A stretch of 64,000 nucleotides of DNA, taken from the NCBI GenBank assembly GCA_041674805.1, contig JBAYVA010000002.1, positions 83,234 to 147,233 of the forward strand, in the 5' to 3' direction. Position 1 is the first letter of the stretch. Each line of letters starts with the position of its first letter. This document shows positions 9,777-59,814 of this stretch, one piece after another. A model generated the notes under the pieces. The model worked only from the letters and a program-made list of their open reading frames with translations. It did no database searches and was not told the DNA's origin. This stretch comes from Candidatus Magasanikiibacteriota bacterium (GTDB lineage Bacteria > Patescibacteriota > Patescibacteriia > Magasanikbacterales > UBA922). Both the position numbers and the translations under genes were made by a program.

Positions 9777-9787
9777 TAATTATACAA

Positions 9788-9816: not shown

Positions 9817-9824
9817 AATTTTTT

Positions 9825-13363: not shown

Positions 13364-13370
13364 AAAAATA

Positions 13371-13396: not shown

Positions 13397-13468
13397 TAGA
13401 AAAAATTATTTAGAATTTTAAAAACCAATAAATAATTAATTAAAATGAACAATAATAAAATAGTTTTA

Positions 13469-13909: not shown

Positions 13910-14122
13910 AAAATAAAAATAATTTTATTTAATTTTCAAATATAATATTGAATTTTAGATGATGTAATCTTTTTTATTACTTTGGAAAATAATTTTTTCT
14001 AGTTTTTAGCAAATTGAATTTAATTACAAGATAATTAATCATTTCAAATCTAAAAAAAATATCAACTAAATTATTATAAACAAAACAAAAAACAAATTAA
14101 TAATTTTATTTTATAAATAAAA

Positions 14123-17150: not shown

Positions 17151-17733
17151 AGATAAAGTCTTTATTTTTATGTTTTTTCATTTTATCACAGTTTGCTAAT
17201 TTAAAAAATCCTCTAAATTAAGCTAAAAGTGCATAAAGTTGTGGACAACTTGTGGATTCTGTGGATAATTTGGCTAAAATACTTTATATTTTTTATTAAA
17301 AAATTATGAACAGTTTGGAGATTTTTACTTTTTTTATTTTAGAAAAATAGATTTTTTGTTAATAGCGTTTTTTTGCTAATTTTAGTAAAAAATGAATAAA
17401 AATAGTTGATTGCTTTATTATAATAACACATCCTTCACTCGTAGCAAAAACAAAGGTCAGAAATGTTTTTTTACCAATGTTTTTGTCTAAAGGTGGATAA
17501 TTACTACGAAATAATACAATTTATACCCTATTTTTGATTTTATTAGGATTTGTAGATTCATTAATTTTGATTAATGTGGTCAATTTATTAGATTTTTGTG
17601 TTTTTTGAAGTTGAAAATTTTTTTTATGTAAGTTAGTTTTTCTTATTATTGTCTAAGTTTTTATCAATACTTGACAAAACTTTAAATTTTTTGTATTATT
17701 TAGCTACATTATTTAGTTTTGAACTTATAAGTT
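17151..17733. promoter_or_regulatory. Candidate oriC: DnaA-box cluster plus AT-rich unwinding region between divergent dnaA and rpmH
   Basis: Three tandem same-orientation boxes: TTGTGGACA (17239-17247), TTGTGGATT (17250-17258) and TGTGGATAA (17260-17268). They are followed by a long A/T-rich tract at 17280-17420. The dnaA<-|->rpmH arrangement is the classic origin synteny. Confidence 0.7.
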
Positions 17734-17913
17734 ATGGCAACAAAAAGAACATATCAGCCAAAAAAACGTAAAAGAGCAAAGACCCATGGTTTTCTAGAAA
17801 GAATGAAAACAAAAGATGGTCGTAAAGTTCTTAAGGCACGTCGTGATAAAGGCAGAAAAAAACTTACAGTAAGTGAAGAAAGAACAGGTAAAAGAACAAG
17901 AAAAACACGTTAA
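17734..17913 (+). CDS. rpmH: 50S ribosomal protein L34 (59 aa, with a 13-residue basic C-terminal extension)
   Basis: Not in the ORF table because it is under 60 aa. Translation: [59 protein letters not shown]. The L34 consensus normally ends near ...KRLTV. It sits upstream of rnpA. Confidence 0.85.
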
Positions 17914-17978
17914 TTTGTCTGTTTTTAATCTAATAACCATTACTACCTCGTTTTTACGAGGTTTTTGTGTTATAATAT

Positions 17979-18362
17979 TTGTATATGTTAGCCAAAGAAT
18001 TTAGATTAAGAGGTAAAAAAGAATGGGAAGTTTTGTTTGCAGAAGGTAACTTTGCTTCGGCAAATTTTTTGACGGTCAAATTTTGGAAGATAGAAGTAAA
18101 TAAATTTCCTCGTAGAAAGTTTCAAGTATCAGATCTTAAGATAGGCTTTAGTGTTGGTTTAAAAATAAGTAAAAGTGCTGTAAAACGTAATAGTGTTAAA
18201 AGAAAAATGAGTGAAGTTGTGAGATTGTTATTAAAAGACAATAAAATTAAATCAGGTTATTTGATTGGATTCTTGGCTAAAAATAATATTTTAGATGTTG
18301 ATTACTCACAAATAGAAGCAGATATTATTAATTGTCTGAAAAAATCTAAACTATTAATCTAA
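17979..18362 (+). CDS. rnpA: Ribonuclease P protein component
   Basis: 127 aa basic protein. ...LAKEFRLRGKKEWEVLF... It follows rpmH in the conserved operon. Confidence 0.85.
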   Translation: MYMLAKEFRLRGKKEWEVLFAEGNFASANFLTVKFWKIEVNKFPRRKFQVSDLKIGFSVGLKISKSAVKRNSVKRKMSEVVRLLLKDNKIKSGYLIGFLAKNNILDVDYSQIEADIINCLKKSKLLI

Positions 18363-21976: not shown

Positions 21977-22063
21977 GTAAGGGGTGGGGAAGGTGGATGC
22001 GCGCGACTTCTACGAAAGTGGTTGTCGTGCGCGTTCGTTCAAATAAAAAATAAAATTTTAAAA

Positions 22064-22099
22064 TTAAAAAAACACTCTCAAATTGAGAGTGTTTTTTAT
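22064..22099. terminator. Bidirectional Rho-independent terminator (GC-island transcript / hppA)
   Basis: A-run, then hairpin ACACTCTC-AAATT-GAGAGTGT, then T6. Confidence 0.75.
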
Positions 22100-22119
22100 T
22101 TCAGTTTAAATCAATGCTT

Positions 22120-24108
22120 TTATTTTAACAAACCAATTATGAGCAAAGCCACAATGTTAGCCACTTTGATCATAGGATTGATTGCAGGGCCAGCTGTGTC
22201 CTTGTAAGGGTCACCTACAGTGTCACCAGTGACAGCAGCTTGATGTGCAAAACTTCCTTTACCACCGTGATTGCCTTCTTCAATATATTTTTTTGCATTG
22301 TCCCAAGCACCACCACCAGTAGTCATAGAAATTGCGACGAATAGACCGGTGATAATAGTACCAACAAGCAAACCACCAAGAGCAGCAGCACCCAAGAAAT
22401 AACCAACTAAGATTGGAGCTACAACAGGGATAACTGCTGGTAAAATCATTTGACCAATAGCACCTTTAGTTACTATATCTACTGTTTTGGCATAGTCAGG
22501 TTTGGCTTGACCTTCCATAATACCTTTGATTTCACGGAATTGTCTGCGAACTTCTTCTACTACACTACCAGCTACTTTACCTACTGATTGCATTAGTAAT
22601 GAACCAAATAAGTAAGGAAGCAAACCACCAATAAATAAACCTGTCAAAACTTTTGGATCATCAATTCTAAATACTGTACTGATACCTTCTGCATCAAGTT
22701 TGTGTGTGAAATCTGCAAATAATACTAGAGCAGCTAGAGCAGCTGAAGCGATAGCATAACCTTTGGTAACAGCTTTTGTGGTGTTGCCAACAGCATCTAG
22801 CGGATCTGTAACATTTCTAACATCTTCTCCAAGTTCTGCCATTTCGGCGATACCACCAGCATTGTCAGTGATAGGTCCATAAGCGTCGATTGCTACGACA
22901 ATACCAGTAAGAGAAAGCATAGACATAGCAGCGATAGCTACTCCGTAAAGTCCCATGAAGTGATAAGCTACAAGCATACCGGCGACAATAGCCAATACTG
23001 GCAAAGCAGTTGATTTCATGGATACTGCTAGACCTGTGATGACATTGGTACCATGACCTGTTTCACTAGATTTTGCAATTTGTTTTACAGGAGCATATTT
23101 GGTTGAAGTATAATATTCAGTAATCCAAACCATAGCACCAGTAAGTACGATACCAACTACAGTTGTCCAGAAAACATCAGCAGTAGTCGCATTTAAATCA
23201 GCAGCGTAGTGTCTACTCAAGAAAAAGAAACCAATTATTGAGAAAAGGCCAGACATTATTAGACCTTTGTACAAAGCTCCCATGATGTTGTTCTTTTTGC
23301 CAAGTCTGATGAAGAAACTTCCAAAGATTGAAGCAATAATAGAAATAGCTCCAAGCATAAGAGGAAACATAATACCTGCAGTAGTACCAACAAAAGTAAG
23401 TCCACCAAGTACCATCGCAGCGACAGCTGTTACTGCATAAGTTTCAAACAAGTCAGCAGCCATACCAGCACAGTCACCGACGTTGTCACCGACGTTGTCA
23501 GCAATTACAGCTGGATTACGAGGATCATCTTCTGGAATACCTTTTTCTACTTTTCCAACTAAATCAGCTCCGACGTCAGCAGCTTTGGTAAAAATACCAC
23601 CACCGATACGAGCGAATATTGAGATAAGACTACCACCGAAAGCTAATCCAATAAGAGCATCTAGGTCTTTGGTCAATAAATAAAAACCAGCAACTCCCAA
23701 AAGTCCAAGACCAACTACGAGTAAACCAGTAACAGTACCACCTTTGACAGCTACATCTAAAGCAGCTTTTAAACCTTTTTTGGCAGCTTCAGTAGTACGA
23801 ACATTGGCTTTGACAGATACATTCATACCTACAAAACCAGCAATTCCAGAGAAAAGAGCTCCAACTAGGAAACCTAGTCCAGTCATCCAGCCTAAAGTTA
23901 GTCCAAGAACCAAGAAAACAAGGATAGCTACATAAGAAATAGTCTTATATTGGCGAGCCAAATAAGCTTTGGCACCTTCTTGGATAGCGCGAGCAATATT
24001 TTGCATGCGTTCTGATCCTGTAGGCTGTTTGTTTATCCATTGAATTAAAAAGATACCGTAACCAATCGCCAAAACGGCTGGTCCGATAAGCAGTAGTGTT
24101 GTTAGCAT
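22120..24108 (-). CDS. hppA: Membrane-bound proton/sodium-translocating pyrophosphatase
   Basis: 662 aa, about 16 TM. Signature [22 protein letters not shown] and the conserved motif EYYTS are present. Confidence 0.9.
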
Positions 24109-30438: not shown

Positions 30439-31917
30439 CTAAATAGTTTTACTGATATAATAGTCTACTGGTGCAAAGTCATCTGTTAAAACTGGCATAG
30501 ATTCTTCTATTTTGCCAATCCATAAGTGTGTTAGATATTTTTGAATTTCTTCATCAGTAGACTCTAGTTTTATTTTTTTGTCGGACTTTAGAGCTACTAG
30601 AATTATATTTTGAACTTCTTTGTCATTGTGTGAATTTCTTACAGGAAATAGATAGACTTGAGGAAAAACATTTTGGTAAGTAGCATATTCTGCACGTAGA
30701 AATTTACCTTGTTCGCCGTTTATAGAAGAAATGATATTCAAAATTACAATACCTTCATCATTTAAAATATTATATTTTTTTTGTACAGCTTCTTTGGTGG
30801 TCAATTGGTAAGGAATAGAAAAATGTGAACTAAAAGCATCTCCAAAAATAACATCGTATTTTTTGTTTGTTTTATTTAAATAAACGCGTCCATCTTCATG
30901 ATAAATTTTCAAATTTGGATTTTCTTTTAAATTGAAATATTGTTTGGCAAGTTCTGTGACTTGTGGATCTATTTCAACTACGTCTATTTTAGCTTCTGGA
31001 TATTTTGATAAAAAATCTTTTGGATAAGAGTAACCAGCACCTCCGAGCATTAGTGTTTCTTTGAAATCGGGCTTGAAGTGTCTTGCTAAGTGATAATACT
31101 TAGTATATTCATAAACTAGTTCCTCACTGTTTAAAAACATTGCGGAACTATGTTCATTGTTGATAGAGAGTGTCCGTTTATTTCCAGCTTGATTATCAGA
31201 AATCCAAACGCGGTTGTAAGAGGTATCTGTATCTAAGAAGAGTCTTTTTTGATTGTTGTTATTAGAAGTGAGAGACAAAGTAGACAGATTCAAAAATATA
31301 ATTATAAAAATTGTTAATTTTGTTTTTATTAAATTTTTTGATGAAAGTATAATAGAGATTATGATAAGAGATAAAGACAAAATCATTAATAATTTATTAG
31401 TACCAAAATGTGGAATCAAATAAAATCCTGAAAAAAATGTTCCAAAAATACTACCAGCTGTTGAAATAGCATATAAATTTCCTATGGTGACTCCAGAACT
31501 ATTTAAATTATTAAGTTTTAGTTTGGCTGCATAGGGAGAAACAATACCGAGTAACAGACTTGGAGGTAAAAACAGAATCAAAGAAGCAATTACGGCTGAA
31601 GTTTTGACATCTTTTATATTATTTTGTAAAAAAATTAAGAGAATATCTTTTTGAAAAATAGTTAGACCTATAAAAAGAGCTGCTAATAAAATAATTATGG
31701 ATAAAGTATTTATATTTGGTTTTTTGTCAGCTAGTTTGCCTCCAAGATAATAGCCAAGACTAAGACTTCCTAGTATGATGCCGATGAGACTTGTCCAAAC
31801 AAAAATTGAGGTACCAAAATATGGTCCTAATATTCTAGAGCCAACAAGTTCAAAAATCATAACAATTGCACCACATGCAAAGATAGCAATTTCCAAATTA
31901 TATTTAGTTAGTTTCAT
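30439..31917 (-). CDS. Spermidine synthase-like aminopropyltransferase fused to an N-terminal polytopic membrane domain
   Basis: About 8 TM helices, then LMLGGAGYSYPKDFLSKYPEAKIDVVEIDPQVTELAKQYF...DVIFGDAFSS, which is the SpeE-type SAM-dependent fold. Confidence 0.7.
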   Translation of the reverse strand: MKLTKYNLEIAIFACGAIVMIFELVGSRILGPYFGTSIFVWTSLIGIILGSLSLGYYLGGKLADKKPNINTLSIIILLAALFIGLTIFQKDILLIFLQNNIKDVKTSAVIASLILFLPPSLLLGIVSPYAAKLKLNNLNSSGVTIGNLYAISTAGSIFGTFFSGFYLIPHFGTNKLLMILSLSLIIISIILSSKNLIKTKLTIFIIIFLNLSTLSLTSNNNNQKRLFLDTDTSYNRVWISDNQAGNKRTLSINNEHSSAMFLNSEELVYEYTKYYHLARHFKPDFKETLMLGGAGYSYPKDFLSKYPEAKIDVVEIDPQVTELAKQYFNLKENPNLKIYHEDGRVYLNKTNKKYDVIFGDAFSSHFSIPYQLTTKEAVQKKYNILNDEGIVILNIISSINGEQGKFLRAEYATYQNVFPQVYLFPVRNSHNDKEVQNIILVALKSDKKIKLESTDEEIQKYLTHLWIGKIEESMPVLTDDFAPVDYYISKTI

Positions 31918-41288: not shown

Positions 41289-41361
41289 GCGGATGTCGTA
41301 TAATGGCTTATTATCTCGGCCTTCCAAGCCGATGACGCCGGTTCGATTCCGGTCATCCGCT
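41289..41361 (+). tRNA. tRNA-Gly (anticodon TCC)
   Basis: GCGGATGTCGTATAATGGCTTATTATCTCGGCCTTCCAAGCCGATGACGCCGGTTCGATTCCGGTCATCCGCT. Confidence 0.85.
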
Positions 41362-41449
41362 CTAAAGGCTTTGACCTTAAAATTTACACAGTGTGGTTAG
41401 TTAAAACGTTTAGTAGGAAGAATAAATATATCGTAGTATTCAAACATAT

Positions 41450-41523
41450 CGCGGGATAGAGCAGTCAGGCAGCTCGTCGGGCTCATAACCCGAAGGTCGT
41501 CGGTTCAAATCCGACTCCCGCAA
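41450..41523 (+). tRNA. Initiator tRNA-fMet (anticodon CAT)
   Basis: CGCGGGATAGAGCAGTCAGGCAGCTCGTCGGGCTCATAACCCGAAGGTCGTCGGTTCAAATCCGACTCCCGCAA. C1xA72 mismatch, and three G:C pairs in the anticodon stem (GGG/CCC). Confidence 0.75.
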
Positions 41524-41574
41524 CAAAGGTATTTACATTTTTTGTAAATATGTTAAAATGAATTTCGCAAAAAT

Positions 41575-41647
41575 GCGGTAGTAGTTCAGTTGGTAGAACG
41601 CTTCCTTGCCAAGGAAGAGGTCGCCGGTTCGAATCCGGTCTGCCGCT
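41575..41647 (+). tRNA. tRNA-Gly (anticodon GCC)
   Basis: GCGGTAGTAGTTCAGTTGGTAGAACGCTTCCTTGCCAAGGAAGAGGTCGCCGGTTCGAATCCGGTCTGCCGCT. Confidence 0.85.
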
Positions 41648-41654
41648 CTTATAG

Positions 41655-41955: not shown

Positions 41956-42438
41956 ATGCCTATTGAATCACGTAAAGATTTTATTTCTTGGGATGAGTGT
42001 TTTATGCGCATTGCTCACGTTATTGCTTTGCGTTCTAAGGATCCTTCTACGCAGGTGGGTGCTGTAATTGCTGATAGGGATAATGTGGTTATTGGTCTTG
42101 GTTATAATGGTTTTCCAAGGGGTATTGAAAGTGATAAATTACCTTGGGATAGAGAAGGTGAAAAATTATCTGATACCAAGTATGCCTATGTTTGTCATGC
42201 TGAAGAAAATGCAATATATAATTCAAGTAAACAGCCAAAAGATTGTAAAATTTATTGCTCTCTTTTCCCTTGTAATGAATGTGCTAAGACAATTGTCCAA
42301 AATGGAATTACAGAAATAGTTTATGAGAGTGACAAATATCATGATGATGATATTTTTGTAGCCTCACGTCGTATCTTGGATGCGGCTGGTGTAGTTTGTC
42401 GACAATTTATTTCAGAAGAAACAAAAAATAAAGAATAA
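41956..42438 (+). CDS. dCMP deaminase (ComEB-like)
   Basis: Zinc-binding CDA motifs HAEENAI and PCNECAK. Confidence 0.85.
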   Translation: MPIESRKDFISWDECFMRIAHVIALRSKDPSTQVGAVIADRDNVVIGLGYNGFPRGIESDKLPWDREGEKLSDTKYAYVCHAEENAIYNSSKQPKDCKIYCSLFPCNECAKTIVQNGITEIVYESDKYHDDDIFVASRRILDAAGVVCRQFISEETKNKE

Positions 42439-42443: not shown

Positions 42444-43007
42444 ATGTCAAATAAAATAATTTTAGGTTTTGTTGGTGATTTGGCTTCTGGTAAGGGAACC
42501 TTGGCTAAATATTTACAAGAAAAGTATAATTGTAATACTTACAGATTTTCTAATATGCTTCGTGATGTTTTAGATAGAATCTATGTAGAAAAAAATCGTG
42601 AAAATATGCAACTCGTTTCAAAAGTATTGCGCGAAAATTTTGGGCAAGATGTGATGAGCAATGTCATTGCCAAAGATGTGGTTGGTGACAAAAATGAACT
42701 TGTTGTGGTAGATGGTATTAGACGTCCAACTGACATCACTTATTTACAAAATTTAGAAGGTTTTCATCTAATATATATTACAGCTGACGTCAAAACTCGT
42801 TGGCAAAGAATGGTGAATCGTCAAGAAAATCCTGATGAAAAAGACAAAACGTTTGAACAATTTTTACTTGATGAACAAGCAGAAGCAGATATGCTGATAA
42901 AAGAGCTTGGTAGTAAAGCTGAAAAAACAATAAATAATGATGGTACAATCGAAGAACTTTATAACAAAATAGAAAATATTTTAGAAAGTTATGGACATAA
43001 AAATTAA
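42444..43007 (+). CDS. P-loop nucleoside/nucleotide kinase-family protein
   Basis: Walker A GDLASGKGT, 187 aa, NMP-kinase-like size. Embedded in the dTTP-synthesis cluster, so a dNMP kinase role is inferred. Confidence 0.5.
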   Translation: MSNKIILGFVGDLASGKGTLAKYLQEKYNCNTYRFSNMLRDVLDRIYVEKNRENMQLVSKVLRENFGQDVMSNVIAKDVVGDKNELVVVDGIRRPTDITYLQNLEGFHLIYITADVKTRWQRMVNRQENPDEKDKTFEQFLLDEQAEADMLIKELGSKAEKTINNDGTIEELYNKIENILESYGHKN

Positions 43008-43425
43008 ACGCATAGACAAAAGTTTACCTTTACCAGAATACAAAACACAAGGCTCTATTGCTTTTGATATGTATTCTCGCGAAGAAATGAAAATTGCGCC
43101 AAAATCTTTGGCACTTTTACCAAGTAATTTCATTATCAAAACTCCAGAAAGTCACGGACTTATTTTGTCAGCTAGATCTAGTCTTGCTAAGAAAAAAGGT
43201 TTGATGCTCGCCAATGGTGTTGGTACAATTGATAGGGATTATTGTGGTGAAAATGATGAAATATTATTGTCAGTTTATAATTTTACAGATGCAGAAGTAA
43301 TTGTAGAAAAAGGTGAGCGTATCGCCCAAGGTATGTTTATGCGTATTGATAGTGGTAATTTTGTAGAAGTAGAAAAAATGGAAGAAAATGATAGGGGGGG
43401 GTTTGGGAGTACAGGTTCGTTTTAA
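42991..43425 (+). CDS. dut: dUTP diphosphatase
   Basis: Trimeric dUTPase motifs AFDMYS, ANGVGTIDRDYCGE and the C-terminal GGFGSTG. Confidence 0.85.
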   Translation: MDIKIKRIDKSLPLPEYKTQGSIAFDMYSREEMKIAPKSLALLPSNFIIKTPESHGLILSARSSLAKKKGLMLANGVGTIDRDYCGENDEILLSVYNFTDAEVIVEKGERIAQGMFMRIDSGNFVEVEKMEENDRGGFGSTGSF

Positions 43426-48014: not shown

Positions 48015-48047
48015 AAAAAAAGCTATCAATATTTGATAGCTTTTTTA
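48015..48047. terminator. Bidirectional Rho-independent terminator (gatB / PRTase-deaminase gene)
   Basis: A6, then AGCTATCAA-TAT-TTGATAGCT, then T6. Confidence 0.75.
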
Positions 48048-48065: not shown

Positions 48066-49232
48066 TTAGGCAAAAGAAAGTCCTGGTTCCAACATCATTT
48101 CTTCATTTTCTATTTTTGTTTTTTGAAAAATATTTTGGTTGGCATAAAATTTTTCATTGGTTGCCATTAGTCTAATGTTTTTACCATTTTCTACTAAATA
48201 CTGAATACCGTTACCACAAATTTTGTTGTCAGCTACATCTTTTTGACCAATGATAACCCATTTTAGTTGTGGCATATCAGATATAAGATGTGAGCATGGT
48301 GTATATTTGCCATTACGATAGGTGCATGGTTCCATTGTACAATAAAGCATGTATTCGTGTTCTTCCCAATCAGGAGTATTATTTTTTAGCATAGACAAAG
48401 CATCTTGTTCAGCATGAACATGTCCACGTCTGTATCCCCAAGCAGAAATTTCGAAAGTTTCAGAATCTACCAATGTGGCTCCTACGCCATAGCCGTGTCT
48501 AGATTTATTTGAAACATCTTCAGCTAATCGTTCAGTGATAGTATAAAATCTACGGTTTACGTCAGCCCAAAAAACATCTTTGAAACGACTAGACATACTA
48601 CAAATTACTTTATTATTTTCTATATAAGTATCAAAAAGGTAGGAATAATCATATTTTTCAAAAATATCATTTTTTTGTCTATAATTACTTTTATCATTTA
48701 CACAATAAATGCCTGTAATTTTTGTATCTGAGCTTATTGACTCAACTGCTTTTACCATATTTACAATAGTTCCTCCAGTTGAAGCCATACAGTCTACAAT
48801 AGCAATTTTTTTATTTTTTAGAGCTTTACTCATATACATTGTACGTTCGTAATAGCCTGTTTGTTGTGAAAAATCAACACATTCTATATCATAATGAAAT
48901 GTTTTGGCAATAATCAAAGGAAGTCGTAATTGTGCAGCGATCAAAGTAGCAATGCCTATACCATCAGATTCTATAGACAGTATAACTTCGGTATCTTTTG
49001 GTATCATTTCTGCTAAATATTTTGCCAAAGTGTTATAAATTCCTTGATTAGCTAGAGTAAAACCTTTGAAAGGATATATAAAATATTGATAATTAGAAAC
49101 AGTACCACCTTTACTATCAGTTGTACGTATTTGTGCTTCACGAAATAAATTCATAGCATCACCTACATCTTTTTTTATGGCTATTATTTCTTGATATGTT
49201 TGTTGAAGTTCTTTTTCAAGAAGATTTAACAT
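48066..49232 (-). CDS. Fusion protein: type I phosphoribosyltransferase domain (N-terminal) + CDA-fold zinc deaminase domain (C-terminal)
   Basis: PRPP-binding loop KIAIVDCMASTGGTIVNMV. Deaminase motifs GHVHAEQDAL and CTMEPCTYRNGKYTPC, ending ...VIIGQ. Confidence 0.65.
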   Translation of the reverse strand: MLNLLEKELQQTYQEIIAIKKDVGDAMNLFREAQIRTTDSKGGTVSNYQYFIYPFKGFTLANQGIYNTLAKYLAEMIPKDTEVILSIESDGIGIATLIAAQLRLPLIIAKTFHYDIECVDFSQQTGYYERTMYMSKALKNKKIAIVDCMASTGGTIVNMVKAVESISSDTKITGIYCVNDKSNYRQKNDIFEKYDYSYLFDTYIENNKVICSMSSRFKDVFWADVNRRFYTITERLAEDVSNKSRHGYGVGATLVDSETFEISAWGYRRGHVHAEQDALSMLKNNTPDWEEHEYMLYCTMEPCTYRNGKYTPCSHLISDMPQLKWVIIGQKDVADNKICGNGIQYLVENGKNIRLMATNEKFYANQNIFQKTKIENEEMMLEPGLSFA

Positions 49233-49438
49233 ATTATATAAAATTAGTCACACCAAAGTGGTATGTAGTAAATAAAAAATCATCCGTATTAGGATGATTT
49301 TATTGTATATATAAAGAAATGAACACTAGCGGATAGCTGGATTTGACTGTTTCTAAATTGTTGTATTGAAGTTATATTCATACCTTACTAATAATAGCAT
49401 GTTTTGAAATAAACAACAATCATAAATTGTGTATATTT

Positions 49439-50729: not shown

Positions 50730-50866
50730 ACTCCGTTTATTACACATATATAAAAAGGCTTTATTTAGCCGATTAATTCATAATTTACAAATGGTTGTGA
50801 TTTCCATAAACCATTATAATGTGTAGTCATTTTAATTTATACATATTAAGTCTAATATATTCGTCT

Positions 50867-53788
50867 ATGAAAAAGAACTTTTTCGCTAAACTAGGCCATT
50901 TTTTCCTGGTTTCAGCTGTTTTATTCAATGGTTTTGGTGTAGCCTTTGTGAAGGCTGATGTTGTAGAAGTTTTGGGTATGTCTCCAAATACAGCAACTTT
51001 GTCTGAGGGTGACATTAACCCTATTTCTTTAGTAACAATTTCTAATTCATCTACTAGTACTATAAATCTAACATTTACTATGTCAGGTGAAGCTGTTAGA
51101 AGTATAGATGGTAGTGGTGATTATGAATTGTTTGTTGGGGAAGGTTCTCCATTTGTAGTTGTTGATACAAACTTAATAAGTGTGCCTGCAAATGATTCTG
51201 TCATCTTTCCTATAAATATTATAAATGACACAGTATCAGAAAATGCAGAATCTTTTGGTTTGACATTTGAAACAGCTAGTTATGATGATGAAAATAGAAC
51301 ACCTGTAGAAGGTTTTAGTTCTCGTGGTGCTATAAATTTTACTATCAATGATAATGATATTACACCTCCTACTTTTGATACTATTGTCCCTAGTCCATTT
51401 TCAAGAAATGAAAGTGATAATTTTGGTGGTATTGCTACTTTTATAAATAATGCTAGTACAACTTTAGATTTTCATTTTGAAATTAGTGGAACAGCTTCTA
51501 CATCTGATTATATAATTGAAACAACTAGTCGTAGTATAAATGAAAATGGAGATGTTATGGCGGTGCCTAATAGTGTGGATTTAGAAAATGGTATAATTAG
51601 TGGGGTTACAGGAAATGAAAAAAGAAGATTTAATTTTAAACCAGTAGAGGACACAGAAGTAGAAATTGATGAAACAGTTATTATTACATTGAAATATGCT
51701 ACTGATATTGAACAAAGAGTTTATGATTTTGCAGATATTTCTTACACTACTATTATTAAAGATAATGATACTGCATCCACTACTACCACAGCTAACGTCA
51801 CATTTTCTTTTTCAACTTCTACTATTAATGAAAATTCTGGTAATGTAAATGTTGCTAATGTTATTAATAATGAAAATCAAGATGTATCTGTGAAATTTAC
51901 ATTTTCTGGCACAGCAGTATATGGCACAGACTATACTTTGAGATCAGGAACTGGTACTTCTATTTTTGGTAATGGTACAGAAGCAGTACTTTTGATAGGT
52001 ATTAATAGTAGTAGTAGTTTTCCTTTGACTCTGAATACAGTTGATAGTGATAAAACTGTTGAAATTACTCTTACACAAGTAAATTTTGCGGATAATTCAA
52101 CAACAACATCTTTCACTGCAGGAAATGTTACAACACATACACTTACTATCAAAAATGTTCCTACATCAGGTGAAAATAATATTCCAACAATAAAAACACC
52201 GATAGCCACACAATATATAGATCTTTATGTTACTTCTACATTAACTATTAATAATGAAATATTAAAGAATTTATTTTTTGATTTAGATACTAATGATAGA
52301 GTTGGTATTAGTTTGACTAATAATACAGATGCTACTGTTGTAACAACAACATCAGACATAGAATTTTCTAGTTTAGTATTAACAGGTTTAAAAGTTGGAA
52401 CAAGTACTATTGAACTTACTGGTGATGATCATCGTGGTGGTATTGTTACCTCAACTTTCGATGTAATCGTTACTGATTCTACTCCTGTTGAGGGAAATAA
52501 TGCTCCAACATCAACTGTAATAGATGATAAAACATTGGAGGTTGGTCAGACTTTTGATATTATTCCTAGTGTTATTTTTGAAGATGTAGAAGATAGTGAT
52601 GATAAGTTAACTTATGGTGTAGAAATTAGTGCTGGTTCTGTTGTTTCTGTAACAACAACAAATTTTACAAATTCTTGGGCATATACTTTTACTGCTGAAA
52701 GTGTAGGTACTTCTACAATTACTCTTAGTGCAACTGATTTGGGTGGTCTTAGTACAAGTACATCATTTAAGGTAACTGTCACAGAAGATGTAACACCTAT
52801 ATTAATAAAAGAAATAGTTAATCAAACTTTAAAAGTAGGTGAAAGTGTAGTTTTGAACTTAAATGATTATTTTTCAGATCCAAACGAAGATGTCTTGTCT
52901 TTTTTAACAAGTATTAACGTTCCAAATTTAATTACTACAACACTTAATACTGAAACAAATAAATTAACAATTACTGGTGTAGCTATAGGTACAACTCTTA
53001 TGAGTGTTACTGCCTCTGATAGTCAACATAGTGTTTATGATATATTTAATGTCACAGTAAAAGAAAATAATGAAGGTAATACTGATAACAATACCGGTTC
53101 AAGTAACGGCGGTGGTAGTTTATTACCAAACACAGCTCCTCAAGCTTCTATGGTTGTTGGTCAAGAAGTAACTATCGAAGTAAACAAAGAAATTACTTTT
53201 GATGCTAGTAGTAGTGTAGATAAAGAAGGAAACATTAGATTTTATTTCTGGAACTTTGGTGACGGAAGTGATGAAGTATATTACACTGTCCCAACAGTCA
53301 AATATACTTATACTAAAATAGGTAATTACACTTTGAATATCAAAGTAAAAGATGCTTACGGTGCTGAGAGTAGTGCGCAAGTAAAGGTAAAAGTTGTAGC
53401 TGGCAAAGCTTCTACAAATACGGGAACTCCAAATACTAATACTGAAAGTGGAACTAAAACTGAAACTGAAACTACAACTTCTACTTCAACAACTGATACC
53501 CCAACTCCTGTAGAAGAAACTGGAAGTACTGGTAGTACAAATAATAATACTAACAATAACACTTCTGCTAATAATACTGAAGAAGAAGCAATAACAACTG
53601 AGGAAGAAAATACTTCTATAGAAGAAGAGACTACTTCTGAAAATACTGAAGAAGAAATTACTGAAGAAGTACCTGCTGAAACAACAGAAGAATTACCAAC
53701 TTGGATCAAGATCATCTTTGGCAGTGGTGCTCTAGCTGCTATTGCTGGCGCTGGACTTGCTATCAATAGAGTGAGAAAAAATGTGTAA
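50867..53788 (+). CDS. Giant cell-surface protein A (signal peptide, Ig/cadherin-like repeats, PKD domain, Thr/Glu-rich stalk, C-terminal TM anchor)
   Basis: The likely true start is MKKNFFAKLGHFFLVSAVLFNGFGV, which matches the paralog start. The ORF-table start at 50819 adds 16 non-conserved residues. PKD: FYFWNFGDGSDEVYYTVPTVKYTYTKIGNYTLNIKVKDAYG. C-terminal EELPTWIKIIFGSGALAAIAGAGLAINRVRKNV. Confidence 0.8.
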   Translation: MKKNFFAKLGHFFLVSAVLFNGFGVAFVKADVVEVLGMSPNTATLSEGDINPISLVTISNSSTSTINLTFTMSGEAVRSIDGSGDYELFVGEGSPFVVVDTNLISVPANDSVIFPINIINDTVSENAESFGLTFETASYDDENRTPVEGFSSRGAINFTINDNDITPPTFDTIVPSPFSRNESDNFGGIATFINNASTTLDFHFEISGTASTSDYIIETTSRSINENGDVMAVPNSVDLENGIISGVTGNEKRRFNFKPVEDTEVEIDETVIITLKYATDIEQRVYDFADISYTTIIKDNDTASTTTTANVTFSFSTSTINENSGNVNVANVINNENQDVSVKFTFSGTAVYGTDYTLRSGTGTSIFGNGTEAVLLIGINSSSSFPLTLNTVDSDKTVEITLTQVNFADNSTTTSFTAGNVTTHTLTIKNVPTSGENNIPTIKTPIATQYIDLYVTSTLTINNEILKNLFFDLDTNDRVGISLTNNTDATVVTTTSDIEFSSLVLTGLKVGTSTIELTGDDHRGGIVTSTFDVIVTDSTPVEGNNAPTSTVIDDKTLEVGQTFDIIPSVIFEDVEDSDDKLTYGVEISAGSVVSVTTTNFTNSWAYTFTAESVGTSTITLSATDLGGLSTSTSFKVTVTEDVTPILIKEIVNQTLKVGESVVLNLNDYFSDPNEDVLSFLTSINVPNLITTTLNTETNKLTITGVAIGTTLMSVTASDSQHSVYDIFNVTVKENNEGNTDNNTGSSNGGGSLLPNTAPQASMVVGQEVTIEVNKEITFDASSSVDKEGNIRFYFWNFGDGSDEVYYTVPTVKYTYTKIGNYTLNIKVKDAYGAESSAQVKVKVVAGKASTNTGTPNTNTESGTKTETETTTSTSTTDTPTPVEETGSTGSTNNNTNNNTSANNTEEEAITTEEENTSIEEETTSENTEEEITEEVPAETTEELPTWIKIIFGSGALAAIAGAGLAINRVRKNV

Positions 53789-54158: not shown

Positions 54159-57100
54159 ATGAAAAATAATTTTTTTGCTAAACTGGGAAACTTTTTTCTG
54201 GTTTCGGCTGTATTGTTCAATGGTTTTGGGGTAGGTTTGGTAAGTGCAGAATATGCAGAAGTTGTCTCTCCCACATTCTCTTTACTTGTTGATAATGTAA
54301 AAGAAGGAAATTTAGGAGAAACAACTACTTATAATGTTGGTGTAAAATATAATGGTCCAGTTTTGGTCTCTGATTATACTGTGGAAGTAATATTTTATAG
54401 TGTTTTAAATGATACTTTTGCTGAATATGGTGTTGATTATGAGGTACCTAATTCTGTGCCTAATTTGGAAGATTCTTCGTATTTTCTTACTTTTACGCCA
54501 GCAACACAAAATGATGAATTGTTTGTTCCTGTAACTGTTATGGGTAACGATACTATTAATAGTTTTAATGTTTTATTCAAATACATTATTTTTACTATAA
54601 AAGGTATTAATATCGACCAACCTGACCAGCTGTTTGGTTTGAGTATTGAAGATGATGATGTTCCTACTATTATTGAACCAATATTTACTCCCGCTACTTC
54701 TGTTGTCTATGAAGGTGTTGCTACAGGAGCTAATGTTACTAAGTTGGTAAACAATAATAATACTGATTTAATTTATACTATTGAACTTACTGGTGATGCT
54801 TTACTCGAACAAGAATTTGGATTGTCTGTTATTGATGAACAAAATATCTCTACACCAATCATGAGTAATTTTTTCAATCTTTCTGTACCAAGAAATTCTA
54901 GTTCTACTTTTTCTGTTCGTACAAATGGTATTTATGATAATTCGTCTTTTGATAATGTTGCAAAACAGACAATTTGGACTGTAACAAATGCGTTTGATGA
55001 GAGTATCTTTATTGATTATGATTTATCTTTAAGTAATATCAACTTTACTTTGGATATAAAAGATGAGGAAAATGATGTAGGTTTTATAAATCCAGCTTCA
55101 TCTGTTGCAGAAGGAATTTCATTGAATGACTCTAATTCATCACTTGTATACAACAATGGTACTGACAATGATGTGTCTTTGACATTTGAACTTTCGGGTA
55201 CGGCATCTTCTTTAACGGATTATACTGTAAGAACAAATGAATTGAGTTCAGGTTCTACTTGGGTAGTACCAAAAAATTCTATTAAATCTTTTCCTGTAGA
55301 TATCTTGAATGTAACTGGTGAAAAAAATTTAGTGTTTACAATTACAAAAATAGATTTATTAAATGACAATGGTACCATTAAAAATGGAAATATTACACCT
55401 ATTTTACCGAATGCACAGACACACACTTTGACAATTCTGGATAATGTTGTACCGCCTGTAAATCATGCACCTGTTGCAATTATGCAACCAATACTTTTGG
55501 GTAATGTTAATGTTGGTTCAAACTCAACCCCTGTTTCATTTTCAACCACTTTTTCAGATCCTGATTCAGATGTACTTACATATAGTGTAGAACTTTCAAA
55601 TCCTGTAATTGCAACATCTCAAATAACAGCAGGTGAGTTGGTACTTACAGGAACAAGTGTCGGTACAACAACAGTAACAATGATGGCTACAGATCCTGAT
55701 GGCTTGAGTGCTAGTACCACGTTTAGTTTGACTGTCGTAGAAAATAATAATGGTGGTGGAAATAATTCTCCAACAGTAAATATTCCAATAGCCACACAAT
55801 ATATTGATCTCTATACTACTTCCACATTAACTATTAATAATGCAATATTGCAGAATTTATTTTCTGATGCTGATGTTAATGACATAGTTGGTATTAGTTT
55901 GACTAATAATACAGATGCTACTGTTGTGACAACAACACCAGGCATAGAATTTTCTAGTTTAATGTTGACAGGTTTGAAAGTCGGTGCAAGTGTTATTGAA
56001 CTTACGGGAGATGATACACATGGTGGTATTGTTACCTCTACTTTTGCGGTAATCGTTAGTGACTCTACTCCTATAGAAGGAAATAATGCTCCTACATTAT
56101 CAACTACAACAGTATTTGTAGATAACGAAATTTCTTTGCAAGAAACATTTGGATCAAATCTTCATCTTTATTTCGAAGATGTTGATGCGGGTGATACATT
56201 AACTTTTTCAGCTACTACAACTGATGCTTCTATAGTGACAAGTGGAATTGACGCATTGGGTCAAATAACACTGACACCACATAATTATGGTACAGTTCAA
56301 GTAATTGTTACTGCCACAGATAATCAAGGTGCTAGTGTCTCTGATGCATTTTCTTTGAAAGTAAATACTCCACCAGAATTAACAGTAAATACTTTAGGAA
56401 ATAAACAAATTGATTTGAAAGTATCATCTAGTTTGTTAATAGATAGTAATACAATTCGTGGTGTTTTTACAGATAGAGATGGAGAAATACTTACTATTTC
56501 TGTAAGTGATAATAGTGATAATACTGTTGTAACAACTACTCTTGGAGAAGATGATTCTCTCACTTTACTTGGTTTAAAAGTGGGAACAAGTACGATTGAA
56601 ATCACTGCTGACGATGGTTATGAAATTACCTCTACTACATTTCTTGTTACGGTTGTAAATTCTACATCTGAAGAAACAGGGAATAATGGTGGCAACTCTG
56701 GCAGTTCAAGTGGATCTAGTGGCGGTGGTGGTTCTGCTCTTCTTTCTAATACAGCTCCTCAAGCTGCTATAACTAATGGTCAAGAAGTAACTGTGGAAGT
56801 AAACAAAGAAATTACTTTTGATGCTAGTCAAAGTACTGACAAAGAAAATAATATTAGATTTTACTTCTGGAACTTTGGTGATGATAGTGATGAAGTATAT
56901 TACACGGTACCAACAGTCAAACATACTTATACTAAAATAAGTAATTACACTTTGATAAGCAAAGTACGTGATGCTTACGGTGCTGAGAGTATTGCTGAAG
57001 TAAAAGTAAAAGTTGTAGCTGCTAAAGGTTCTACAAATACGGGAACTACAAATAATACTTCAAATACTAATACAGAAAGTGAAACTAAAAATGAAACTAC

Positions 57101-57431
57101 AATTCCAAAAACTGATACAACTACATCTGTAAAAGAAACTGGAAGTACTGGTACTACTACAAATACTAATAACAATAATTCTTCTAACAATACTGAAGAA
57201 GAAACAGTTATTGAAGAAGAAATTATAGAAGAAAGTACAATTGAGGAAGAAGATACTTCTTCTGAAGAAGAGTTTATTTTTGAAAATATCAAAGAAGAAA
57301 GTATTAAAGAAACACCAGTTGGAGAAGTAGAAGAACTACCAACTTGGATAAAAATCATCTTTGGTAGTGGTGCTTTAGCTGCTGTAGCTGGCGCTGGTCT
57401 TGCTATTAATAAAGTGAGAAAGAATATATAA
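54159..57431 (+). CDS. Giant cell-surface protein B (paralog of A)
   Basis: MKNNFFAKLGNFFLVSAVLFNGFGV signal peptide. PKD domain is about 85% identical to A. C-terminal EELPTWIKIIFGSGALAAVAGAGLAINKVRKNI. Confidence 0.8.
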   Translation: MKNNFFAKLGNFFLVSAVLFNGFGVGLVSAEYAEVVSPTFSLLVDNVKEGNLGETTTYNVGVKYNGPVLVSDYTVEVIFYSVLNDTFAEYGVDYEVPNSVPNLEDSSYFLTFTPATQNDELFVPVTVMGNDTINSFNVLFKYIIFTIKGINIDQPDQLFGLSIEDDDVPTIIEPIFTPATSVVYEGVATGANVTKLVNNNNTDLIYTIELTGDALLEQEFGLSVIDEQNISTPIMSNFFNLSVPRNSSSTFSVRTNGIYDNSSFDNVAKQTIWTVTNAFDESIFIDYDLSLSNINFTLDIKDEENDVGFINPASSVAEGISLNDSNSSLVYNNGTDNDVSLTFELSGTASSLTDYTVRTNELSSGSTWVVPKNSIKSFPVDILNVTGEKNLVFTITKIDLLNDNGTIKNGNITPILPNAQTHTLTILDNVVPPVNHAPVAIMQPILLGNVNVGSNSTPVSFSTTFSDPDSDVLTYSVELSNPVIATSQITAGELVLTGTSVGTTTVTMMATDPDGLSASTTFSLTVVENNNGGGNNSPTVNIPIATQYIDLYTTSTLTINNAILQNLFSDADVNDIVGISLTNNTDATVVTTTPGIEFSSLMLTGLKVGASVIELTGDDTHGGIVTSTFAVIVSDSTPIEGNNAPTLSTTTVFVDNEISLQETFGSNLHLYFEDVDAGDTLTFSATTTDASIVTSGIDALGQITLTPHNYGTVQVIVTATDNQGASVSDAFSLKVNTPPELTVNTLGNKQIDLKVSSSLLIDSNTIRGVFTDRDGEILTISVSDNSDNTVVTTTLGEDDSLTLLGLKVGTSTIEITADDGYEITSTTFLVTVVNSTSEETGNNGGNSGSSSGSSGGGGSALLSNTAPQAAITNGQEVTVEVNKEITFDASQSTDKENNIRFYFWNFGDDSDEVYYTVPTVKHTYTKISNYTLISKVRDAYGAESIAEVKVKVVAAKGSTNTGTTNNTSNTNTESETKNETTIPKTDTTTSVKETGSTGTTTNTNNNNSSNNTEEETVIEEEIIEESTIEEEDTSSEEEFIFENIKEESIKETPVGEVEELPTWIKIIFGSGALAAVAGAGLAINKVRKNI

Positions 57432-58473: not shown

Positions 58474-59814
58474 TTATAGCATTTTCCCCCATAAAATCCA
58501 GTGTCCTGCTTCGGTGATGATTACTTTTACTATTTTACCAATCAAAGATTTGTCTCCTGGAAAATTGATGCGTTTCATTTCGCGAGAGTTGCCACCGCAC
58601 ATTCCGTTTTTGAAAGTGTCCACCAAGACAGATACTTCTTTGTTTAAGTATAATTGATTTTTGCGTAAAACGATATCTTCCATCAAATGTTGTAATTTAA
58701 ACCAACGTTTTTTCTTTTCATCTTGAGTAATATTGTCTGTGAAAGCTTTGTCAGCTGTCGTGCCAGAACGAGTAGAATATTTGGCAGTATAAGATATATC
58801 AAAATCACATTCTTGATAAAGTGAAATAGTTTCAGCAAAATCTTCGTCTGTCTCATCACAAAAACCAACAATAATATCTGTACCAATTGCAATGTCTGGT
58901 TTTTTTTCTCTGATTTTCTTTATTTTTTCTAAATACAATTCACGAGTGTGCTTGCGATTCATTTTTTTCAAAATCTTGCTACTGCCAGATTGCACTGGTA
59001 AATGTATAAAATTCAATTGTTTTGGCAGTGTCAAAGCATCAATTACTTCATCGTCCATGTGAATCGGATGTGGTGCTGTCCAGTGAATACGTTCTAGCCC
59101 CTCAATTTGATTTAGTTCCCATAGCAATTTGGCAAAATCATTTTGTGTATAAGGATTATTTGAACTGAATTTGTCGTCTTCTTTGGCAAGCCAATGATTG
59201 ACTATTTGTCCCAAGAGTGTGATTTCTAGACAGCCATAGTTTACTAGAGATTTTACTTCATCAAGAATATCTTTGAGTGGTCTGTTTACTTCCATACCTC
59301 GAGCATAAGGTACGACACAATAGGTACAGAACTGGTTACAACCTGTCTGAATGGTCACAAAAGCCTGGAATTTACTTTTGACGTGTGGTTTGACACTTAG
59401 ATAATCAAGTTCTAAATCTATTGGTCTAAGCTCTGGATTGAGTTCTGAGAGCCACTTTGGCATCATAATCACATCTTTAGTCGGGAAAAATAGATCTACG
59501 CCTTTCAATCTTTTGCGTAATGTGCCATCTTTGTCACGTCCTGGCATACAGCCTGTCACTGCGACGATTAAGTTTGGTTTAGTTTCTTTTAACTTTGCAA
59601 ATTCATGAGAAAAACTATAGATACGATCTTCAGCCGATTCGCGAATAGAGCAACTGTTCATGAGTATCACGTCAGCTTCTTCTGGCTTATCTGTTGATAT
59701 CATATTCATGGACTCAAAAATAGATTCAATACGCTCTGAATCATTTTTGTTCATTTGGCAACCGAATGTTATAATATGATAGTGGAATTTTTTGTTTTCT
59801 TGATGGTCTTTCAT
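58474..59814 (-). CDS. miaB: tRNA-i6A37 methylthiotransferase (radical SAM)
   Basis: N-terminal MTTase Cys triad (FGCQMN...), radical-SAM CNQFCTYCVVP, and a TRAM domain. Confidence 0.9.
   Translation of the reverse strand: MKDHQENKKFHYHIITFGCQMNKNDSERIESIFESMNMISTDKPEEADVILMNSCSIRESAEDRIYSFSHEFAKLKETKPNLIVAVTGCMPGRDKDGTLRKRLKGVDLFFPTKDVIMMPKWLSELNPELRPIDLELDYLSVKPHVKSKFQAFVTIQTGCNQFCTYCVVPYARGMEVNRPLKDILDEVKSLVNYGCLEITLLGQIVNHWLAKEDDKFSSNNPYTQNDFAKLLWELNQIEGLERIHWTAPHPIHMDDEVIDALTLPKQLNFIHLPVQSGSSKILKKMNRKHTRELYLEKIKKIREKKPDIAIGTDIIVGFCDETDEDFAETISLYQECDFDISYTAKYSTRSGTTADKAFTDNITQDEKKKRWFKLQHLMEDIVLRKNQLYLNKEVSVLVDTFKNGMCGGNSREMKRINFPGDKSLIGKIVKVIITEAGHWILWGKML

Follow-up and report, generated by a model that had tools for sequence, protein, structure and literature searches.

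Adenine is brought into the inosine 5'-monophosphate (IMP) pool by routes that employ two enzymes, namely adenine phosphoribosyltransferase (APRT) and adenosine 5'-monophosphate (AMP) deaminase in eukaryotes and adenine deaminase and the phosphoribosyltransferase Hpt in bacteria and archaea. The known metabolic deaminases of AMP, adenosine, and adenine are separate proteins and belong to the amidohydrolase (TIM-barrel) superfamily. Among the deaminases of the cytidine deaminase (CDA) fold, the RibD-like clade is recognized by additional residues inside the CxxC motif, among them a histidine, and by a lengthened insert that connects strand 4 to helix 4 (PMC3239186). The gene described here joins a phosphoribosyltransferase (PRTase) and a RibD-like deaminase in a single polypeptide. 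It lies at positions 48066–49232 on the minus strand of a 64,000-nucleotide stretch of DNA from a Candidatus Magasanikiibacteriota bacterium (GCA_041674805.1, contig JBAYVA010000002.1), in the following called the window. We suggest that the gene codes for a bifunctional purine-salvage enzyme, which is the best explanation we can offer and which we hold with slightly less than even confidence.

The open reading frame starts with ATG, ends with TAA and encodes 388 amino acids without an internal stop. Both halves score above the gathering cutoffs of Pfam: PF00156 (Pribosyltran) matches amino acids 71–188 with 29.1 bits (cutoff 26.3), which assigns the N-terminal half to the PRTase superfamily, and PF00383 (dCMP_cyt_deam_1) matches amino acids 236–321 with 30.9 bits (cutoff 25), which assigns the C-terminal half to the CDA superfamily. 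With 35 homologues as input, AlphaFold2 gave a model of the fusion protein with high confidence (pLDDT 86.7, pTM 0.83), which has an N-terminal helix, the PRTase domain, a connecting helix, the deaminase domain, and a disordered tail. The gene is thus divided as follows:

48066..49232, minus strand: complete gene with PRTase domain and RibD-like deaminase domain (intact reading frame, both Pfam domains above cutoff, about 35 homologous clusters)
49140..49232, minus strand: long N-terminal helix, amino acids 1–31 (helix 2–31 in the AlphaFold2 model; missing from PRTase-only relatives)
48591..49130, minus strand: type I PRTase domain, amino acids 35–214, similar to APRT, archaeal Hpt, and xanthine phosphoribosyltransferase (XPRT) (NCBIfam and Foldseek)
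48513..48590, minus strand: interdomain helix, amino acids 215–240 (AlphaFold2)
48135..48512, minus strand: RibD-clade zinc deaminase domain, amino acids 241–366 (TIGR00326, PDB profile search, Foldseek)
48069..48134, minus strand: C-terminal tail, amino acids 367–388 (pLDDT below 50, variable in the alignment)

The standalone PRTases described below align with the fusion protein only from about residue 25–45 onward. The interdomain helix is among the well-predicted parts, with a mean pLDDT of 91–93 per 10-residue block over amino acids 211–240, and a standalone deaminase (P0074) starts with its counterpart. The first-pass annotation of this DNA had proposed a fusion of a type I PRTase with a CDA-fold zinc deaminase, and Pfam, AlphaFold2, and Foldseek agree that the fusion is genuine. 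Profile and fold searches place the C-terminal half inside the CDA superfamily, and the uninterrupted reading frame together with the conservation of the layout among relatives speaks against a frameshift or two separate genes. The 388-amino-acid two-domain protein is therefore the product of a real and intact gene.

When 5.8 billion protein clusters were searched, 38 relatives of the fusion protein were found. About 35 clusters (90% identity) are full-length and have the same two-domain layout with 371–396 amino acids (355 in one case), so that the fusion is far beyond chance. Every organism named in the source of a fused relative belongs to Candidatus Magasanikbacteria or Patescibacteria. 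When 1.84 billion representatives were searched exhaustively with HMMER, the full fusion appeared in only three clusters at 50% identity, and in a set with one genome for each GTDB species it is carried by 23 genomes. The protein encoded at locus L007 is 98% identical to that of the window, and the one from Ca. Magasanikbacteria RIFOXYD12_FULL_33_17 (L008) is 96% identical. In the alignment of 35 sequences H273, E275, P302, C303, C313, D147, C148, and S151–T155 are invariant. The fusion is thus a conserved trait of a single lineage of ultra-small bacteria, Candidatus Magasanikbacteria. The sole apparent split of the gene is found in locus L042 (87% identity), where an in-frame TGA replaces the GGA codon of the invariant Gly266 (at 1570–1730) and cuts the gene into reading frames of 265 and 111 amino acids; the neighbouring reading frames are free of internal stops. 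A nonsense mutation or an assembly error is more likely here than a recoding of UGA to glycine, for which a contig of 3 kb is too short to judge, and a two-gene organisation based on this single TGA was rejected.

The N-terminal half resembles purine PRTases. Its best curated models in NCBIfam are the archaeal hypoxanthine/guanine PRTase NF040646 (78.8 bits, cutoff 200) and the APRT subfamily NF002635 (76.6 bits, cutoff 146), and both matches span nearly the whole models (profile positions 18–182 of 184 for NF040646). The scores for APRT TIGR01090 (29.5 bits, cutoff 185.85) and XPRT TIGR01744 (20.3 bits, cutoff 164) are below the cutoffs as well. Profile and fold searches against the PDB lead to APRT, XPRT, PurR, and related proteins; with Foldseek the probability is 1.00 and the target-normalised TM score 0.75–0.77 to the XPRT structures 1y0b and 6w1i and to APRTs. 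The uracil phosphoribosyltransferase (UPRT) models TIGR01091 (14.7 bits, E 0.018, cutoff 208) and PF14681 (13.9 bits, cutoff 27) fall short of their cutoffs. As the structural neighbours of the N-terminal half are purine PRTases, a UPRT-type reading is not supported, and the example given in the first-pass annotation, the conversion of cytosine by way of uracil to UMP, is not borne out by 14.7 bits for UPRT against 76.6–78.8 bits for the purine PRTase models. From sequence comparison we place the N-terminal half in a sub-clade of the APRT/archaeal-Hpt/XPRT group which is specific to the candidate phyla radiation (CPR) and distinct from UPRT. The following elements were located in this domain:

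49062..49091, minus strand: motif YQYFIYPFKG, amino acids 48–57, the clade-specific version of YxYF[IV]HP[LI][ST]DG of archaeal Hpt
48957..48971, minus strand: region of the pyrophosphate (PPi) loop, ESDGI, amino acids 88–92, with invariant D90, G91, and I92
48837..48905, minus strand: loop after strand 3, amino acids 110–132, with invariant K110, H113, Y114, Q123, G126, Y127, R130, and M132
48768..48806, minus strand: binding loop IAIVDCMASTGGT for phosphoribosyl pyrophosphate (PRPP), amino acids 143–155, with D147, C148, and S151–T155 invariant in the fused family

Three features change together in this sub-clade: EAxGIP becomes xDGI, RKRxYG becomes [KR]xFHYN, and VDDV..STGGT becomes VD[CA]..STGG. 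In the first motif of the domain Y48, Y50, Y53, P54, F55, and K56 are invariant among the fused proteins. The invariant Asp90 occupies the place where APRT, orotate phosphoribosyltransferase, and PurR carry Arg or Lys, as seen in the alignment with 6fsp, PurR, and distant relatives, and the loop of amino acids 110–132 stands where canonical relatives have RKRxYG. The PRPP loop, which the first-pass annotation had recognized, reads IAIVD147-C148-MASTGGT, such that the first acidic residue and STGGT are invariant and the second acidic position is taken by Cys148. At this position there is Cys in the fused family, D[CA] in the wider clade, and DD in distant relatives. In UPRT, one acidic residue can suffice (D-P motif).

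These substitutions raise the question of whether the domain is catalytic at all. It could be a PurR- or PyrR-like module which binds PRPP or a nucleotide and regulates the deaminase or presents its substrate; the PurR repressor is among the top Foldseek and phmmer matches, and other residues stand in place of the second acid in the PRPP loop and of the basic side chains that bind PPi. However, the putative catalytic loop (K110, H113, Y114, Q123, G126, Y127, and R130) and the STGGT loop are invariant, and the members of the clade also stand alone beside genes of nucleoside phosphorylases or nucleosidases, without a DNA-binding or other effector domain. We therefore consider a non-catalytic role quite unlikely.

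The standalone PRTases of the sub-clade have about 195–225 amino acids and occur in Parcubacteria, Falkowbacteria, Paceibacterota, and two metagenome-assembled genomes labelled 'uncultured Candidatus Saccharibacteria' (species-representative genomes). All seven PRTase-only loci contain an orthologous PNP_UDP_1 gene. Among curated models this gene fits the short AMP-nucleosidase type best; uridine phosphorylase and DeoD come next. The PRTase and PNP_UDP_1 genes are directly adjacent in L030 (9178–10528) and L031 (9148–10525) and are part of the same tight cluster in L032–L034 (about 5100–12000); the pair is also present in L035 and L037. A base-releasing gene next to a PRTase is a classic salvage pair, which suggests that this PRTase clade acts on a free, probably purine, base. 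In L032–L034 the cluster also comprises a 208-amino-acid class I methyltransferase and a 692-amino-acid protein with an N-terminal half like serine hydroxymethyltransferase or fluorothreonine transaldolase, and it is flanked by aminoacyl-tRNA synthetase genes; it may represent a pathway salvaging by-products of S-adenosylmethionine (SAM).

The RibD-like nature of the deaminase had been overlooked in the first-pass annotation and is the most informative feature of the protein. TIGR00326 (RibD, 40.1 bits, cutoff 156.35) is the sole deaminase family among the NCBIfam matches listed for the protein, and RibD structures are the best deaminase match of the C-terminal half in profile searches of the PDB. 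Foldseek leads to RibD, RibG, and Rib2, with an rmsd of 2.4–2.7 Å over 134–141 alignment columns to RibG/RibD, and the identity to RibDs is 32–45% over about 110 amino acids. The spacing of the cysteine ligands in the fused family is C-x9/10-C as in RibD, and the loop KDVADNKICGNG aligns with RDPNPLVAGRG of RibG, so that both the insert in the CxxC motif and the extended insert between strand 4 and helix 4 are present. The third trait of the clade, the histidine in the CxxC insert, is found in 28 of 30 RibDs and is absent here, as 32 of 38 members of the fused family carry tyrosine. The match to TadA structures ends at the PC motif and has a lower score (25.5 versus 31.7 bits). An assignment to the TadA, dCMP, or guanine deaminase type was rejected, given the spacing of 9–10 residues as opposed to a short CxxC and RibD as the only listed deaminase model. 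The elements of the active site are as follows, with the substrate columns compared in 29–30 RibDs and 38 family members:

48423..48440, minus strand: loop W265-G266-Y-R268-R269-G before HAE, which replaces the substrate-binding His42 of RibD and adds two Arg
48408..48416, minus strand: H273-A-E275, zinc ligand and catalytic glutamate (H and E in 38/38 family members and 30/30 RibDs)
48294..48332, minus strand: zinc motif E301-P-C303...C313, EPCTYRNGKYTPC, amino acids 301–313, with a 9-residue insert containing Y305, the invariant R306, and N307
48228..48239, minus strand: D332-V-A-D335, counterpart of D101/N103 of RibG (column counts)

The HAE and zinc motifs are those on which the first-pass annotation had relied. 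Kept in RibDs and in the fused family are the residues corresponding to H49, A50, E51, E72-P73-C74, C83, and Asp101 of RibD, the last of which is the ribose-binding Asp (30/30 RibDs, 38/38 family members, D332 here). The C-terminal half is thus very probably a catalytically competent deaminase on a RibD-clade scaffold.

The substrate-binding residues tell a different story. In RibD and RibG the phosphate is bound by Lys79 (Arg84 in A. baumannii), His76, and Thr80 (PMC8256712, PMC3668577), the ribose 2'- and 3'-hydroxyl groups are bound by Asp101 (Asp106 in A. baumannii RibD) and Asn103 of RibG (PMC8256712), and Asn23, which belongs to the PNP motif, and His42 (His47 in A. baumannii) help to form the pyrimidine/ribose site, the canonical motif being PCxHxG(R/K)TPPC (PMC8256712, PMC3668577). 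In the fusion, Asn23-Pro24 is replaced by Gly247-Tyr248 (Asn in 29/29 RibDs, Gly in 34/38 family members), His42 by Gly266 with Trp265 just before, His76 by Tyr305, Lys79 by Gly (Lys in 26/30 RibDs, Gly in 30/38 family members), and Thr80, present in 27/30 RibDs, by His or Tyr. In the loop before HAE, RibDs have His in 25–26 of 29–30 sequences, and the fused family has Gly in 37/38, Trp in 36/38, and at the two basic positions Arg in 34 (Lys in the other 4) and Arg in 32. The zinc motif reads PCxYRNxxGxTPC in the fused family versus PCxHxG(K/R)TPPC in RibD. New to the fused family are Arg306 beside Tyr305, which is invariant (38/38), Asn307, Arg268-Arg269 before HAE, and Asp335 (36/38). A look at the substrate-specificity residues, which had been proposed as a check, therefore gives a divided answer: the catalytic and zinc core and the ribose Asp are kept, and the residues typical of the riboflavin-pathway deaminase are replaced.

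The same residues bear on the idea that the domain is a riboflavin-pathway (DAROPP) deaminase or, alternatively, a defence, toxin, or nucleic-acid-editing deaminase, which we regard as very improbable. It is true that RibD is the closest deaminase family, that a flavokinase-like gene lies convergent and downstream in five loci, and that many CDA-fold deaminases are toxins or editors (PMC3239186). However, the residues reported to be strictly conserved in RibD (Asn, His, His, Lys/Arg, and Thr) are replaced, the score is 40 against a required 156 bits, neither Pfam nor NCBIfam finds a reductase domain (RibD_C) in the protein, and among the neighbours examined there are no riboflavin-synthesis genes apart from the flavokinase-like gene in the five loci. 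The identity as DAROPP deaminase was rejected since the canonical motif and the Asn and His residues are replaced and the score remains far below its cutoff. The flavokinase-like gene, which codes for 119–121 amino acids where the short reading frame is seen, is situated just downstream in L003 (9143–9502, minus strand), L018, L021, L023, and L025, and its convergent orientation argues against co-transcription with the fusion. The first-pass annotation had also considered a defence-type deaminase. No family of PADLOC-DB matches the fusion protein at E ≤ 1, no copies were found in a viral scan or in phages by tblastn, and plasmids match one half at a time, never the full length. The family occupies ordinary chromosomal settings across the whole lineage, with no toxin-delivery or immunity context. 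A role in defence or on a mobile element was rejected on these grounds.

Which substrate could fit into the remodelled pocket? The invariant D332, Arg306 in the phosphate loop of RibD, and R268/R269 before HAE argue for a substrate which bears ribose and phosphate. This agrees with one option of the first-pass annotation, namely that the deaminase acts on a nucleotide. The domain probably retains the way in which RibD holds the ribose and has basic residues grouped at the site used by RibD and Rib2 for the phosphate, and the base pocket has probably been rebuilt. Three aromatic residues were gained in the base pocket, and the replacement of Asn23, His42, and His76 by G247/Y248, W265/G266, and Y305 suggests a roomier pocket with more stacking, as would be needed for a bicyclic purine.

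An ordering of the two steps that differs from the one we prefer is that the free base is deaminated first (adenine to hypoxanthine, or cytosine to uracil) and is then converted by the PRTase domain to IMP or UMP. Deaminases of free bases with the CDA fold do exist, for example, the guanine deaminase GuaD and the yeast cytosine deaminase (PMC3239186). The N-terminal half resembles archaeal Hpt, and for adenine the net reaction is identical to that of our best explanation. In methanogens without APRT, adenine is routed by adenine deaminase to Hpt. The invariant ribose Asp known from RibG and the Arg-rich patch at the phosphate site of RibD/Rib2 speak against a free base as substrate, and the pyrimidine version is very unlikely in view of the UPRT score (14.7 bits, E 0.018, against 77–79 for the purine models). 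Altogether we consider this order rather unlikely.

A guanine-type reaction is similarly doubtful. In this case the PRTase would make guanosine 5'-monophosphate (GMP) and the deaminase would convert it to xanthosine 5'-monophosphate (XMP), or guanine would be deaminated to xanthine, which an XPRT-like domain would turn into XMP. The substrate of RibD has the same 2-amino-4-oxo-pyrimidine ring as guanine (PMC8256712), and Gly247, standing for the Asn that contacts the 5-amino group in RibD, could admit C8 of the closed imidazole. In addition, the best model of the N-terminal half is a hypoxanthine/guanine PRTase, and the best target-normalised TM score is to XPRT of B. subtilis. On the other side, the step from GMP to XMP has no obvious anabolic use, the return from XMP to GMP costs ATP, the gene associations point to the metabolism of adenosine and S-adenosylhomocysteine, and His42 of the RibD substrate site (PMC3668577) is lost.

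Thus, we suggest that the N-terminal domain would join a free purine base and PRPP to a nucleoside 5'-monophosphate and that the C-terminal domain would deaminate, by zinc-dependent hydrolysis, the nucleotide made by the PRTase domain. This general mechanism, a purine PRTase coupled to a deaminase acting on a ribose-bearing purine, appears to us somewhat more probable than its opposite. The most likely net reaction would be adenine + PRPP + H2O to IMP + PPi + NH3, with AMP as the intermediate, by which adenine from SAM by-products or scavenged nucleosides might be fed into the IMP/GMP branch. The specific route from adenine to AMP and IMP can be put forward only tentatively. It is the most coherent choice because adenine is the base set free from by-products of SAM, the partner genes have to do with adenosine, and IMP leads to the guanine nucleotides. 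The inferred parts of this scheme are that both halves work as enzymes, which step comes first, and which base is used.

Spermidine synthase and radical-SAM reactions yield methylthioadenosine and 5'-deoxyadenosine, and a release of adenine is hence expected in this organism. The window also encodes a protein with a spermidine synthase domain (30439–31917, minus strand) and a radical-SAM/UPF0004 (MiaB-like) enzyme (58474–59814, minus strand). Genes for purine interconversion were not found among the annotated reading frames of the window.

The gene neighbourhoods of the relatives give a further hint. Over 25 non-redundant fused loci the neighbours vary, and a Wzy_C-type membrane protein recurs in 11 of them. 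In six distinct fused loci, however, a block is found which consists of S20, the fusion, in some cases the flavokinase-like gene, a PfkB nucleoside kinase, and adenosylhomocysteinase (AhcY; TIGR00936, 633 bits, cutoff 498). The six loci come from two divergent sub-clades, and in them kinase and adenosylhomocysteinase are encoded downstream of the fusion on its own strand; in L010 the kinase begins 38 bp downstream. These downstream genes tie the fusion family to the metabolism of adenosine and adenine.

Several observations weigh against the proposed adenine-to-IMP enzyme. The PRTase clade departs from the canonical PRPP features (D-C instead of D-D, Asp90, and the lost RKR loop), and therefore another donor or acceptor, or inactivity, may apply. 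By its chemistry, a pocket derived from RibD is nearest to a 2-amino-6-oxo (guanine-type) ring and not to adenine. The association with kinase and AhcY holds for only 6 of the 25 non-redundant loci, is missing from the window, and may partly reflect synteny. Finally, both halves exist alone without the partner nearby, so that their coupling is not obligatory: no deaminase half was found within 10 kb of the PRTase-only loci, and no PRTase half near the standalone deaminases. A split gene pair as 'Rosetta stone' support for the fusion was thus rejected.

The standalone deaminases are of the same subtype, have about 163 amino acids and were found in L039 (5174–5665), L040 (2010–2501), and L041 (1107–1598). 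Their contigs have a GC content of 37–41%, that of L039 with ankyrin-repeat and NamZ genes and those of L039 and L040 with YkuD. They seem to come from a different, possibly host-associated lineage. The standalone deaminase P0074 was not located among the metagenome contigs.

A divergent branch of the fused family adds another activity. P0040 (624 amino acids) carries a class I methyltransferase domain fused at its C-terminus, and in L038 (3088–5640) a related methyltransferase gene overlaps the start of the fusion gene by 4 bp and a nucleoside diphosphate kinase (NDK) gene follows. It is conceivable that the family makes a modified nucleotide, such that phosphoribosylation, deamination, and, in some relatives, a SAM-dependent methylation make up a short pathway for the biosynthesis or detoxification of an unusual base; besides the fusion of P0040 and the gene overlap and NDK gene of L038, this would be in line with PRTase and deaminase pockets that diverge from all characterised families. 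Yet the link to methyltransferases is confined to the divergent P0037/P0039/P0040 clade, and class I methyltransferases are common chance neighbours. We rate a modified nucleotide as unlikely, slightly more so than a non-catalytic PRTase domain. As a trait of the whole family the association with methyltransferases was rejected: it is real in the divergent P0037/P0040 clade and absent from the window and the Magasanikbacteria loci.

In the window the fusion gene is located near a thymidylate operon on the plus strand, which contains a ComEB-type dCMP deaminase (41956–42438), an AAA_17/dNMP-kinase-like protein (42444–43007), a dUTPase (42991–43425), thyA, folA, and tmk and extends to 45475. Three tRNA genes (Gly-TCC, Met-CAT, and Gly-GCC, 41289–41648) precede this operon. 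The first-pass annotation had placed the gene next to the dTTP-synthesis cluster; it is indeed near, 2.6 kb away, but on the opposite strand, and a membrane-protein gene and gatB lie in between. A functional tie finds no backing, as the gene has a convergent orientation, is bounded on both sides by terminator-like hairpins, and stands in a neighbourhood that differs in every relative examined. The link to the thymidylate operon was rejected, the proximity being coincidental. The two hairpins are:

48016..48046, no strand assigned: hairpin of 14 pairs with an A-run and a T-run between the convergent gatB and the fusion gene, likely a two-way terminator
49276..49301, minus strand: hairpin with T-run 43 nt upstream of the start codon, which separates the gene from an upstream SanA-like gene

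A hairpin with T-run at 9–43 nt upstream of the start was observed in 9 of 22 orthologous loci as compared to 20 of 195 other genes (Fisher p = 6e-4). Besides the window, such a hairpin stands at the equivalent position in L001, L007, L009, L010, L011, L015, L019, L026, and L027, and several of the stems share CCAC...GTGGTTTT. No Rfam family matches the hairpin at 49276–49301, and a search for riboswitches or leaders upstream of the fusion gene gave nothing at the gathering threshold and only noise at E ≤ 5. The best explanation for the upstream hairpin is that it terminates the preceding gene. Its closeness to the start codon leaves hardly any space for a promoter and thus suggests transcripts with no leader or a very short one, or control by read-through.

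Further features of the window are unrelated to the fusion gene. The genes dnaN (14123–15250, minus strand) and dnaA (15765–17150, minus strand) coincide with the minimum of the cumulative GC skew (12000–18000), and it therefore seems that the chromosomal replication origin lies within the window. Two very large reading frames on the plus strand comprise 989 (50819–53788) and 1090 amino acids (54159–57431). The former looks like a cell-surface protein, judged from a hydrophobic segment at its N-terminus, repetitive stretches rich in Thr and Ser, and a hydrophobic anchor at its C-terminus. A local peak of the GC content (0.40 versus a background of about 0.30) at 22001–24000 falls onto a reading frame of 662 amino acids (22120–24108, minus strand).

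CPR bacteria (Patescibacteria) combine very small genomes with a strong reliance on salvage, and much of their nucleotide metabolism is deduced from distant homology. The fusion can be seen as a lineage-specific solution, in which a PRTase sub-clade that is widespread in CPR and usually paired with a nucleosidase or phosphorylase has been joined to a deaminase. If the substrate is a purine nucleotide, the range of reactions known for the CDA fold would widen, and a step of purine interconversion in these organisms would be filled. If adenine is converted to IMP, bacteria with reduced genomes could supply their guanine nucleotides from the adenine of SAM-dependent reactions. Possibly, the C-terminal domain is then the first CDA-fold (RibD-clade) deaminase of a free purine nucleotide, that is, a bacterial AMP deaminase without kinship to the amidohydrolase-type enzymes, fused to a hitherto unrecognised CPR-specific clade of purine PRTase as a one-protein route from adenine to IMP, a proposal we advance with due reserve. 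For annotation the family calls for caution: current database labels are 'hypothetical protein', 'adenine phosphoribosyltransferase', or 'RibD-like pyrimidine deaminase', none of which is adequate for the fusion. As the first-pass annotation had stated, it is not a standard salvage enzyme. Its scores are below the curated NCBIfam cutoffs of every named PRTase or deaminase family.

In our literature search we found no paper on this PRTase–deaminase fusion or on a purine-nucleotide (AMP/GMP) deaminase of the CDA fold, and fusions with a PRTase are absent from a survey of the deaminase fold (PMC3239186). Both kinds of enzymes are known; new is the lineage-restricted layout that joins a new PRTase sub-clade to a repurposed RibD-type deaminase. 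With RibD/RibG (EC 3.5.4.26) and the fungal Rib2 the fusion has in common the fold, the HAE and EPC motifs, the long insert between the cysteines, the loop after strand 4, and the ribose Asp. In contrast to these enzymes it has no C-terminal reductase, it has acquired Arg306, Arg268, and Arg269, and the canonical pocket residues are gone. The N-terminal half has the fold, length, and STGGT loop of archaeal Hpt (NF040646), APRT (T. thermophilus 6fsp/5zgo), and XPRT (B. subtilis 1y0b) and shares the N-terminal YxYF..P..G motif with archaeal Hpt, but its scores are far below the cutoffs, it carries clade-specific changes, and it is fused to a deaminase. Among solved structures, PurR comes first in both fold and sequence comparisons with this half; unlike PurR and PyrR, the fusion is devoid of a winged-helix domain, it keeps as invariant those loops which have degenerated in PurR, and its standalone kin are found in salvage pairs. 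The two-enzyme routes from adenine to IMP accomplish the same net chemistry as proposed here, whereas the deaminase of the fusion has the CDA fold and is covalently joined to the PRTase. The engineered yeast FCY1-FUR1 ('FCU1') is an artificial fusion of cytosine deaminase and UPRT, which handles pyrimidines and deaminates the base first. FCU1 resembles the fusion described here in that a single chain holds a PRTase together with a deaminase of the CDA fold, but our fusion combines a purine-type PRTase with a RibD-like deaminase.

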